A stretch of 64,000 nt of DNA from a virus (IMGVR_UViG_3300018036_000004:1-64000), one strand, 5' to 3'. Positions 53,048-55,794 are shown, numbered from the stretch's first letter. Notes: generated from the sequence alone by a model not told the origin. Numbers and translations are program-made.

Positions 53048-53710
53048 CTAATATGCGTCTTTATTGTCTAGGTAATTCATTAGAATTTTTGGTGCTTCTT
53101 TATCAAACACAGATTTAAAATGTGTAAAACACTTATCCATCGACTCATCTATATTTGGAGTAAGAATATTTTTCTCAACATCGTAAGGGTCTTGAAACAA
53201 CCCGTAAAAATCACATTCGCTCTTATTGGTCCCATCTCTTGCGATCACATAATTGAACAAAATGAAATCACGACCCACGACTAACTTCATCTCTACATGT
53301 CCCCAAGCACCTTTACCCCCTATATTAGATTTTATTTTCCAATCTAAACCTGTTTTCTTAGCCCAATTTTCCATATAAGACAGGATTTTACCATAGGTGT
53401 CTTCAATGGCTTGTTTAGCGTCTTGGTCACATTCAGAACCTTGTTTCCACCAATCTATACAAACCTTTTGTTTTTGTACTCGAATAGGCTGTGTTCTTGT
53501 ATAGGTGACATAGGCTATGTCACCTTGAACATTAATGTCTTCGATATAATGTTGTGAGACATGCTGAGCAGCCCAAGACTCTACTTGACCCAACAGGTCT
53601 TCTTCGTCTTCGTAAACGAAAACATAATCTTCTAACCAGTCTTTAGAGGCCAGTTTCTTTAATTGTTGAACTTCAAGAAGAAGTTGTTTTGCTGTCAGTT
53701 TTTTATTCAT
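53048..53710 (-). CDS. hypothetical protein with KKLAS leader
   Basis: MNKKLTAKQLLLEVQQLKKLAS. Confidence 0.7.
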   Translation of the reverse strand: MNKKLTAKQLLLEVQQLKKLASKDWLEDYVFVYEDEEDLLGQVESWAAQHVSQHYIEDINVQGDIAYVTYTRTQPIRVQKQKVCIDWWKQGSECDQDAKQAIEDTYGKILSYMENWAKKTGLDWKIKSNIGGKGAWGHVEMKLVVGRDFILFNYVIARDGTNKSECDFYGLFQDPYDVEKNILTPNIDESMDKCFTHFKSVFDKEAPKILMNYLDNKDAY

Positions 53711-53783: not shown

Positions 53784-55229
53784 TTAATCTATTAAATAAA
53801 TGTAAGCACTGGAGTCTGTCTCGATAATACCATCGTCAAACATAATCTCTAAAACCTGACTTACTTGTTTAGCGTCTACTTTAAACTTACGCATTACTTG
53901 TTTTGTTAAGTCTTCAATGAAAATAGCATCTTTACGACTTAGTAAGTCTTGAATGTACTTTTCCATCTTAGACTGTAAGTTTGCAAACTTCCACTTATTA
54001 CGATCCATCATGTCCTTAGGTGAAAAGGTATTACGTTTAGGAAGAAACTTGTCAAAGTCATATCGTCCGTCTCCTTCTCGGGCTTGTAACCAAGCCAAAA
54101 CACCTCTAGCAGAACCATGTGTACCAAACCTTTTAACAATGGAGAATCTATTATCTACCATGTACATTGTGTAACGATCAATGTACTTGTTATTTTCAGA
54201 ATCTGCGTTTCTTAAAGCAAGGAATGTGTATTCAGGAGAGATTCTTTTAGTGAAACTAGATTGATCTCTGGACCATCCCGCTACACCTACGGCAGAGTGT
54301 GTAGGTATACCTTTTCTAGGAACACTGTCACCTTGTTTGTAGATAGGATACCCATAACCATTAAAGTCCGCTTTAAAGTTTCTACGGGCTTGTCTAGACT
54401 GGTTCATTTTAACAGCCCCTTGTAAATCCGGTTGTTCGGATTCTACAACAAACCTGTTTAAAGTAGACACATCACTACCACCGGGTAACTCTAAAATCTC
54501 GTCTGGAGTTAAAGGACTAGCTTCGTACTCTTTCTTTTCCTGTGATAGTGGGCTTTGGTGGCCTCTATCTTCTTTTAAAGTATTTTTAAAAGTAGTAGGG
54601 TCATTAGAAACAGCGTTGGACTCTGCAAACTGTGAAACCTCTACTTTACGAGGATCTTTGTAAAAGATTTCGGCGGCGTCTATATCTTCCGAAACTCTTC
54701 TGTTTAATTTGGCTGTTCTAGGTTCTACAATCTGTTGTAACAAGTATAAGTTACTTTCGTGGTTGGAAGCCAATGTGATTAATAAATCCTCTAGACCTAT
54801 TGTCATTAAACCAAAACCTTTTAAGTCCTCAATACTTTGTTCGATTAACTGTAAAAAGAACCTTTCAATGTGTAAGCCTCTTTTAATAGGATCTTGTACC
54901 TGAGAGAAACCTTGTAGGTATGAAAACATCAAAGGTGCTTGGTAGGCTAGTTTAAGTTGGCTAGTTCCCATAACCCCACCAATCTTTTCCGCCAAACTAT
55001 CAATCTCTTCGTTTGTAGAGTTGTACAGTCTTTCGAAAAGTAAGTGGTCTTGGAAAAAGTGTGATCCGTATACAGTCCAATGGGAAGTCTGGTAAGAAAT
55101 AGACATTGCTCTTAAACAGGCTAAAACAGGTCCTAGGATCTGTCCACCTACGGCCACCATTTCTAAGTCGTTAGTCACATACCCATTTTTAGTAAAGTTT
55201 TCGTATTGTTGTTCCATAGTATCTTCCAT
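53784..55229 (-). CDS. Dps/ferritin-like domain multidomain protein (may start at 55316 through an in-frame UGA)
   Basis: HWTVYG..F..DH.LFERLY.....EID.LAEK is a Dps-type ferroxidase motif. Confidence 0.8.
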   Translation of the reverse strand: MEDTMEQQYENFTKNGYVTNDLEMVAVGGQILGPVLACLRAMSISYQTSHWTVYGSHFFQDHLLFERLYNSTNEEIDSLAEKIGGVMGTSQLKLAYQAPLMFSYLQGFSQVQDPIKRGLHIERFFLQLIEQSIEDLKGFGLMTIGLEDLLITLASNHESNLYLLQQIVEPRTAKLNRRVSEDIDAAEIFYKDPRKVEVSQFAESNAVSNDPTTFKNTLKEDRGHQSPLSQEKKEYEASPLTPDEILELPGGSDVSTLNRFVVESEQPDLQGAVKMNQSRQARRNFKADFNGYGYPIYKQGDSVPRKGIPTHSAVGVAGWSRDQSSFTKRISPEYTFLALRNADSENNKYIDRYTMYMVDNRFSIVKRFGTHGSARGVLAWLQAREGDGRYDFDKFLPKRNTFSPKDMMDRNKWKFANLQSKMEKYIQDLLSRKDAIFIEDLTKQVMRKFKVDAKQVSQVLEIMFDDGIIETDSSAYIYLID

Positions 55230-55404
55230 TTCGATTTCTTCGTTATACTCATAAGGACCACCCTGCCCCTCATAAGAACCTCAACCCCTTTTGAGTCTGC
55301 GTTGTTGTTTCCACATTGTTTTCACCGTATTAGTTTGTCTATCTAAGTTGTATAGTAATAACATTTTATGTAGACGATAGTGTTTCTATTGAGAGGAGTG
55401 TTAC

Positions 55405-55794
55405 ATGAATATACAGTTTAAATTAAGTTTAGAATCTGAATACGAACTGTATGATTATTACGGGTATCCAGTAATACCACAAAAGTTATTTTCGGATATT
55501 TACTATAAACATAATGTTAAAACTAACTCTGTGGCTTTTGTTTCAAGACAAGACAATAAGTATCTTATGTTAATGGTACCTATACCTAAATACTTAAACA
55601 GAGACGACCTTGAAAGAGTTACTTATCGTAATGACTTTTACTTTAGATGTGAGTTTATGTCTAATATAGAAGGTAATCACGATAAGTGTTTCTTTATGGT
55701 TAAGGCTTTAGATGTAGACACTATACCTTATGTAGATACAAGTATCTGGGGTATATTTAATAGACAAATACAAGAGTTAAAGAGTAAAGAATGA
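55405..55794 (+). CDS. hypothetical protein
   Basis: GAGGAG RBS. Confidence 0.6.
   Translation: MNIQFKLSLESEYELYDYYGYPVIPQKLFSDIYYKHNVKTNSVAFVSRQDNKYLMLMVPIPKYLNRDDLERVTYRNDFYFRCEFMSNIEGNHDKCFFMVKALDVDTIPYVDTSIWGIFNRQIQELKSKE

Follow-up and report, generated by a model that had tools for sequence, protein, structure and literature searches.

The closest described parallel to the locus reported here is found in the bacterial selenocysteine genes. In these genes the apical loop of the SECIS hairpin lies 16-37 nt from the UGA (PMC10778597) and opens with a conserved G (PMC4607533, PMC1976440); the SECIS of epsilonproteobacteria is a 'minimal' hairpin of 5/6 bp with an invariant loop G (PMC4607533), and a canonical SECIS with a 3-nt, G-first loop at nucleotides 21-23 has also been described (PMC13326102). 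In fdhF of E. coli (NC_000913.3) the UGA is followed by 11 nt and then by a hairpin at nucleotides 15-31 (counting the U of UGA as 1, as throughout), whose loop, A21-U26, holds the sequence GGUC.

Translation past a stop codon has other precedents in phages. UGA is the leakiest stop, and the A1 protein of phage Qbeta is made through a UGA at about 5% (PMC7026636); in the bypassing of T4 gene 60 the Gly take-off codon stands beside a stop, and a hairpin and a signal in the nascent peptide also take part (PMC7026636). A literature search found reports of selenoproteins of eukaryotic viruses and none reported for viruses of bacteria. Here we compare these systems with a small cassette (about 100 nt) in a large phage, in which a short leader, an in-frame UGA and a SECIS-like hairpin precede a Dps-like gene, and which an original prediction, made from the one sequence, had put forward as a candidate phage selenoprotein.

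The locus and its start sites

The window analysed is a stretch of 64,000 nt, the first 64 kb of a 102,476-bp IMG/VR virus entry of 36.6% G+C whose completeness is estimated at 58%. The phage is large and myovirus-like and has genes for a tail sheath, a terminase, a ribonucleotide reductase and a clamp loader. The closest relative with a name is an uncultured phage of 485 kb (TerL identity 54%), and the sole match found by tblastn was LR745208, a 485-kb uncultured phage of 56% GC which is without the cassette. Against phage records blastn gave no match to the window sequence, a first viral scan with the window protein found nothing, and a scan of GTDB genomes returned two distant MAG matches that held no clue to the host. 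The deltaproteobacterial host hinted at in the original prediction is thus unsupported.

The features of the locus are given in Table 1. They lie in and beside a 175-nt stretch, otherwise empty, which separates the 481-aa ORF from a divergent plus-strand ORF at 55405-55794. Neither a terminator nor a sigma-70 promoter was found on the minus strand between 55100 and 55500, and an Rfam search around the window site and in the related locus L051 gave no relevant family. An antisense ORF at 55206-55346 was rejected as a real gene, as it has two stops in the closest relative.

Table 1. Features of the UGA cassette and the adjoining Dps-like gene in the window.
Feature	Positions	Strand	Remarks
Shine-Dalgarno site GGTGA of the leader	55322..55326	-	16S 3'-end duplex -7.6 kcal/mol; L002 has the same 9 nt before the ATG
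11-codon basic leader mini-ORF, ATG 55316-55314, end K-R-G	55284..55316	-	minus-strand reading
In-frame UGA, candidate recoded codon	55281..55283	-	TGA in all 26 distinct cassette versions
17 in-frame codons from the UGA to ATG 55229, Gly/Tyr/Glu-rich acidic linker	55230..55280	-	no indels in comparison with L002
Hairpin 3' of the UGA	55248..55276	-	predicted fold; 55276-55267 pairs with 55257-55248, three G-U pairs
Conserved hairpin core	55256-55268 (nt 16-28, U of UGA = 1)	-	5-bp stem, one G-G mismatch in the window, GGG loop nt 21-23
Two candidate internal starts, ATG 55229 and ATG 55217	55215..55229	-	both with weak ribosome sites
481-aa Dps-like ORF	53784..55229	-	predicted Dps/ferritin four-helix domain near residues 30-170; two more conserved regions follow it

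The original prediction had proposed that a GGTGA, an ATG, a basic leader and a UGA run in frame into the 481-aa ORF, and each of these elements was confirmed on the minus strand. As a scale for ribosome sites, we used 101 gene starts of the phage, whose Shine-Dalgarno sites are strong (median duplex -6.3 kcal/mol), and internal ATGs, at -3.0 kcal/mol. The leader ATG beats 81% of gene starts (19% are as strong) and has the sole good ribosome site of the region. ATG 55229, the annotated start, which had been said to lack a clear Shine-Dalgarno site, does have a duplex of just -1.7 kcal/mol, and that of ATG 55217 is -3.9 kcal/mol, both in the same range as internal ATGs. There is no in-frame ATG, GTG or TTG between the UGA and 55229.

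A hairpin with a 10-bp stem and a G-rich loop 16 nt from the UGA had also been claimed. The predicted fold stands and the upper 5-bp part is kept in relatives, but the lower half of the stem is not conserved and is broken in the closest of them. The inner loop begins 17 nt after the UGA, which is close enough to the distance claimed, and the SECIS-like character holds good in that the loop is G-first and lies at a published distance from the UGA. The 42 nt after the window UGA have an MFE of -13.3 kcal/mol, equalled by 0.9% of 2324 TGA triplets of the genome; against shuffles the z-score is just -2.0 to -2.5. Each arm of the lower stem has one copy of CTTATGAG, and above it a short inner helix closes on the GGG loop. 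The two copies are 21 nt apart, are the only two in the window and encode a peptide repeat ((S/P)-Y-E); they were rejected as operator sites, being just two in number, not above chance and peptide-coding.

UGA had been said to be a normal stop elsewhere, and this is so: TGA ends 12 of the 101 long ORFs (12% of stops, making it a minority stop), while Trp is served by 437 TGG codons. No other in-frame TGA junction of this kind was found in the 102-kb record. These observations led us to reject a general reassignment of TGA (table 4 or 25), and an error of sequencing was rejected since an independent contig, L002, has the identical TGA. On the sequence evidence, the internal UGA of the window is neither an error nor part of a chance ORF.

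The Dps-like protein

The 481-aa ORF matches phrog_3636 in PHROGs. The Pfam Ferritin model (PF00210) scores 21.4 bits (E 2.6e-4), thus below its threshold of 24.5, and a profile of 16 relatives matched Dps proteins among solved structures with an E of 8.7e-12. His50, His62, Asp77 and Glu81 are invariant in the Dps-like alignment, with a 12-15-4 spacing that we take to be that of the ferroxidase ligands of E. coli Dps. The retention of this spacing and the match to solved Dps chains are consistent with the ferritin/Dps-like nature that had been claimed for the protein.

The protein is like the Dps mini-ferritins in its predicted four-helix ferritin-like domain, its His-His-Asp-Glu spacing and its profile match, and unlike them in its length of 481 aa, its two extra conserved regions, its sub-cut-off Pfam score and in being encoded by a phage. 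It also differs in the origin of its basic N-terminal tail: relatives encode a short basic Dps N-terminus directly, whereas in the window, and in L002, the basic stretch is joined to the protein solely via the UGA.

Conservation across the UGA in the closest relative

The independent JGI contig L002 encodes a Dps-like protein with 86% identity to that of the window, and 96 nt of sequence upstream of it are available. The leader ATG and the 9 nt before it are kept in L002; the leader itself again has 11 codons and encodes a different yet basic peptide, ending K-K-G, with 64% nucleotide identity to the window. In the 11 codons after the TGA there are five nucleotide differences, of which four are synonymous third-position changes and one replaces Gly by Ala; in the other two frames none would be synonymous. 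The next 10, acidic codons are 53% identical, with no indels, and are followed by an ATG which matches 55217, such that frame and length are kept over 32 codons. A gene that starts at the downstream Met, with no conservation upstream of it, is therefore not what is seen in this close relative, as start, ribosome site and UGA are all retained.

The same comparison bears on the hairpin. Two synonymous TAT to TAC changes in L002 break the lower stem and leave the peptide unchanged, and the Gly to Ala change turns the G-G mismatch of the window into a G-C pair. From these changes it follows that the peptide and the upper hairpin are conserved and that the full 10-bp stem is not. ATG 55229 is GTT in L002, while ATG 55217 is kept there and is preceded by GAGGA; with such a good ribosome site at the internal ATG, Dps could be made without recoding in L002.

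A cassette family at Dps-like loci

Beyond these two sequences, the cassette can be described as [K/R]-x-[A/G/S], then the UGA, a spacer of 11-12 nt, a 5-bp hairpin with a G-first loop and an acidic in-frame peptide. We found about 26 distinct versions in large marine and estuarine phages, all at or near a Dps-like gene and all with TGA: five are the window, L002 and L003-L005, and the other 21 are DNA contexts of a second set, set C. Two scans of sequence collections left the codon at the stop position free and found seven IMG/VR records, which all have TGA. In every version the third residue before the UGA is basic and the last one is small, A, G or S (in the window at 55284-55292). The five phage records inspected (63-159 kb) hold exactly one cassette each. 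A further pattern match, at L083, was rejected as due to chance.

A pattern scan of fetched loci found R-R-R-G, TGA and G-x-Y-D-E-Q in L003, L004 and L005 (set A). There the cassette is the end of a large gene of unassigned family, which lies zero or one gene upstream of the Dps-like gene, and the TGA is followed by 31-32 conserved codons in which no start codon is available. Between L003 and L004, 15 of 27 differences are in third positions, one indel is of a whole in-frame codon, and the end, D-F-W-D-x-F, is conserved. The likeness of set A to L002 extends about 17 codons past the UGA, up to L-N-P. Database proteins of the set A gene form at least seven clusters with quite different bodies, and they end at the R-R-R-G before the UGA. 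Pfam gave nothing on these upstream cassette-bearing proteins, and a 'ParB-like' identity, suggested by a DGHHRW motif, was dropped for want of Pfam support.

Set C, at many Dps loci of higher G+C, reads [K/R]-x-[A/G/S], TGA, x-[E/D]-[G/D]-E-[E/K]-R-S-L-P-H-x-H-P-H-P. Its variation after the UGA, over about 30 codons in 21 contexts, has a clean three-base periodicity, and the stop of this extension usually overlaps the Dps ATG (ATGA). In L011-L051 and L090-L096 (for example, L051:1843-1935) an invariant P-H-x-H-P-H-P is followed by the acidic D-I-D-E-W-N-P; the His-rich motif may bind metal, and the last codons of the extension supply the ribosome site (GAGGA) of the Dps-like gene.

In L022/L023 and in L032/L035 a conserved mini-leader of 6 codons, M-T-Y-R-H/Y-S, precedes the cassette, which here stands at the front of a long ORF of 558 or 134 aa, whose conserved post-UGA peptide has no start of its own. 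The architecture of the window, a mini-leader and UGA at the front of a long ORF, thus recurs in both pairs. The mini-leaders (L022:195-236, L023, L032:1558-1578 and L035) belong to two quite different phages, and that of L032 has an ATG which overlaps the stop of the preceding gene (TGATG). A mini-leader of 6-11 codons followed by UGA only makes sense if the UGA is decoded.

Conservation of the hairpin and its SECIS geometry

The set C hairpin joins nucleotides 15-19 to 24-28 and has GGUC as its tetraloop in every sequence; all 105 cells pair in the 21 sequences, and RNAalifold recovered this helix unaided. Four of the pairs never vary. The other, 16-27, is compensatory: 13 sequences have G-C and 8 have A-U, with no mismatches, a score unmatched in 500 shuffles; its switch changes Glu to Lys on one side and is a synonymous Leu change on the other. 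On a tree of the adjacent Dps proteins the states of this pair require at least five changes, at least three of them forced by well-supported branches, and recombination could be the source of some of these changes. Third-codon positions within the hairpin, including the loop G of CGG, are invariant and flanking ones vary. Taken together, these patterns indicate that the hairpin is under selection in set C.

The window, L002 and set A form a 5-bp stem of nucleotides 16-20 and 24-28 with a G-N-N triloop, and 96% of cells pair in these five sequences, with no compensatory changes. Single-sequence fold z-scores in this subgroup run from +0.2 to -2.5, and only that of the window stands out; on these five sequences the case for the hairpin is thin. 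All 26 versions begin the loop with G, as the third base of CAG in five of five and of CGG in 21 of 21; CAG makes up 26-30% of Gln codons. The nucleotide comparisons of the preceding sections show the conservation of the UGA, of the frame, of the coding signature behind it and of the hairpin.

The geometry is close to that of the known elements. The distance from UGA to loop is 17 nt in the window, L002 and L003-5 and 16 nt in the 21-sequence set, and the triloop of the window occupies the same place, nucleotides 21-23, as that of the canonical SECIS cited above. Set C compares with fdhF as UGA, 11 nt, a hairpin at nucleotides 15-28 and a GGUC tetraloop, the latter being the core of the fdhF loop. 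By the match of UGA, spacer and loop to fdhF and to published descriptions, the cassette has the structural features of a bacterial SECIS. Their specificity is modest, as a loose SECIS-like rule is passed by 9% of random TGA sites in the genome; it is conservation, rather than geometry, that carries weight for the SECIS reading.

The cassette family is, then, like bacterial SECIS genes such as fdhF in having a conserved in-frame UGA, a hairpin 11 nt on (in the largest subgroup), a loop at 16-17 nt and an invariant loop G. It is unlike them in lacking Cys homologues and a bulged U and in being borne by phages. Selenocysteine would sit in a disordered junction and not in a catalytic site, and the cassette is portable between unrelated proteins, behind a leader that can be as short as 6-11 codons.

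Selenocysteine as the preferred reading

A stop and hairpin kept in about 26 sequences, together with the SECIS geometry, suggest that the UGA is probably decoded, most likely as selenocysteine. That the UGA of the family is decoded in some manner we hold to be highly probable from the comparative patterns. That it is read as selenocysteine, making leader, UGA, hairpin and Dps-like ORF one recoded gene at 53784-55316 on the minus strand, we rate as an evenly balanced proposition. We infer both the identity of the inserted residue and a host with the needed machinery.

Under the selenocysteine reading, ribosomes would start at the well-placed ATG 55316 and reach the UGA as codon 12. Some of them would decode it instead of terminating, with the hairpin 11-12 nt downstream acting as a bacterial-type SECIS that recruits the SelB of the host with its Sec-tRNA. 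The Dps-like protein so made would carry a short basic leader at its N-terminus, followed by a single selenocysteine, placed as Gly-Sec-Gly, and an acidic linker rich in Tyr and Glu. As a portable unit, the cassette would have been placed by related large phages at the end of the gene upstream of Dps, or behind a mini-leader. The reading is favoured by the fixed 11-nt spacer, by the invariant, non-standard loop at a synonymous site, by the fdhF-like geometry and by the mini-leaders, on which termination would yield just 6-11 residues.

Other observations fit it less well. The original prediction named Cys or a conserved TGA at this codon in homologues as support. The TGA is conserved, but the classical proof is lacking: no Cys was found among proteins of 268-854 aa, 1.84 billion representatives, short proteins and the products of pattern scans. 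Just one protein, P0094, reaches across the site; it has 119 aa, is encoded on an ENA contig of 521 nt and has Trp at this position, as seen at the protein level. The Trp could stem from a genuine TGG or from gene calling under table 4, the latter being conceivable for a contig so short and low in GC, and we give P0094 little weight either way. The residue at the UGA lies in a disordered, basic-to-acidic junction joined to unrelated proteins, with no recognisable redox motif. The tRNA-Sec and selD genes were looked for on the phage fragments, and neither is present there.

Selenocysteine in the Gly-rich, disordered C-terminal tail of a protein, in a Gly-Sec-Gly type of setting, is familiar from the eukaryotic selenoproteins K and S. 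These are membrane proteins with a SECIS in the 3'-UTR and have no homology to the cassette proteins; the comparison is just a precedent for selenocysteine outside a folded active site.

That the cassette is always at or beside a Dps-like gene, and is fused to it in the window, suggests that the recoded segment works with Dps. On the broadest form of the selenocysteine reading, which we regard as doubtful, the cassette would be a portable 'selenocysteine gate', making the Dps-like protein, or the acidic tail of its neighbour, dependent on the SelB, Sec-tRNA and selenium of the host, so that the phage would carry a selenoprotein, probably virion-associated, and read the selenium/redox state of its host. 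If [K/R]-x-[A/G/S] is a prohead-protease site, as is putatively the case, cleavage could expose the selenocysteine as a new N-terminus.

If the UGA does encode selenocysteine, the cassettes mark a family of phage-encoded selenoproteins of unusual design, with a movable UGA-plus-SECIS junction that has no Cys counterparts, is sometimes just 6-11 codons from the start and is tied to Dps. Whether by selenocysteine or by other read-through, gene callers truncate or mis-start the genes that carry it.

Alternative readings of the UGA

The rival that survives best, although we consider it rather unlikely, is programmed read-through independent of SelB, in which a near-cognate tRNA (most likely that for Trp) would decode the UGA at a low rate, helped by the [K/R]-x-[A/G/S] nascent end and the hairpin, to set a ratio of terminated to extended product; here that would be an 11-residue peptide against an extended Dps. 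Programmed read-through had already been named as the alternative in the original prediction. All the evidence for translation past the UGA applies to it equally, as conserved extensions behind an invariant UGA fit selenocysteine too, and a stop that serves to set a ratio is expected to be obligatory, with Cys forms absent, as seen in the 26 versions. P0094, the one relative with a sense codon, has the Trp that such decoding would insert, with the caveat on its gene call given above. Read-through would work in any host, and the extensions, like typical read-through tails (PMC7026636), are short stretches of acidic, disordered peptide. The UGA of the Qbeta coat gene resembles the cassette in being a leaky, obligatory stop in a phage which extends part of the molecules (PMC7026636), and is unlike it in that here a sequence-specific hairpin is conserved at a fixed spacing and the 'short form' in the window would be a mere 11-residue peptide.

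Against this rival, the constancy of GGUC at a synonymous site and of the 11-nt spacer points to recognition by a specific factor and not to mere stability; GGUC is, to our knowledge, outside the extra-stable tetraloop classes. Qbeta is an RNA phage in which we know of no required downstream hairpin, and were the cassette independent of SelB, DNA phages would have in it a conserved signal for read-through that depends on a hairpin, of a kind for which we know of no bacterial precedent. A leader of 6-11 codons is also implausible as a 'short isoform', and for low expression a weak ribosome site would do.

A second rival holds that the window cassette is a relic or a plain uORF: the 11-codon ORF would end at the UGA, Dps would be made from ATG 55217 or 55229, perhaps by re-initiation, and a working cassette would be confined to those relatives that have it at the end of the upstream gene. 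We think this improbable. The conserved ATG 55217, with its GAGGA ribosome site in L002, is in its favour, and more distant homologues begin near this ATG with directly encoded basic N-termini; the low identity (53%) of the 10 codons before it also counts for this rival, as does the fact that window and L002 are two sequences only. It does not account for the synonymous-only pattern right after the UGA or for the keeping of the frame, the 32-codon length and the ribosome site and ATG of the leader, and in the window itself both internal ATGs have weak ribosome sites. Moreover, the mini-leader recurs independently in L022/23 and L032/35, where the post-UGA peptide lacks a start of its own.

The last rival, a different form of decoding, we hold to be very improbable: a hop in which peptidyl-tRNA-Gly leaves GGU, skips the UGA and lands on the following GGN would suit the Gly codons with free third positions that flank the UGA in the window, L002, L003, L004 and L005, but it was rejected as a general mechanism, since the other 21 contexts have GCC, GCT, GGT, TCG or TCC before the UGA and CAG, CCG, CCA, GGT, AGC, GGG or CTG after it, and a suppressor tRNA or a stop reassignment encoded in the missing 40% of the genome, for which the incomplete record (58%) leaves room, is opposed by the otherwise ordinary use of TGA and TGG and by the lack of a suppressor tRNA on any phage fragment searched. 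T4 gene 60 shares with the cassette a Gly codon followed by a stop, a basic nascent stretch, a nearby hairpin and a phage origin (PMC7026636), and it is unlike the cassette in that the frame of the latter is continuous, with no gap to bypass.

Further observations on the phage loci

The gene downstream of Dps in the window (53048-53710, minus strand) has an N-terminal leader (K-L-T-A-K..L-K-K) in common with a 168-aa gene of L003 (1471-1977) and L004 (1481-1987), which there lies between the cassette and Dps; this points to a rearranged gene order around Dps among the relatives. A tRNA-like gene with an abnormal 2-nt anticodon call (ARAGORN) is present at L097:1589-1662, beside tRNA-Ser(GGA) and tRNA-Leu(TAA), in a record that is a 159-kb fragment of a phage estimated at more than 400 kb. 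Outside the window, the record to which the window belongs (G000 90293-91894; L082:794-2395) encodes a 533-aa protein homologous to the N-terminal part of the L003 gene that bears the cassette; this protein is without the cassette and has repeated R-Q-A-S-R-K-L-D segments near its end.
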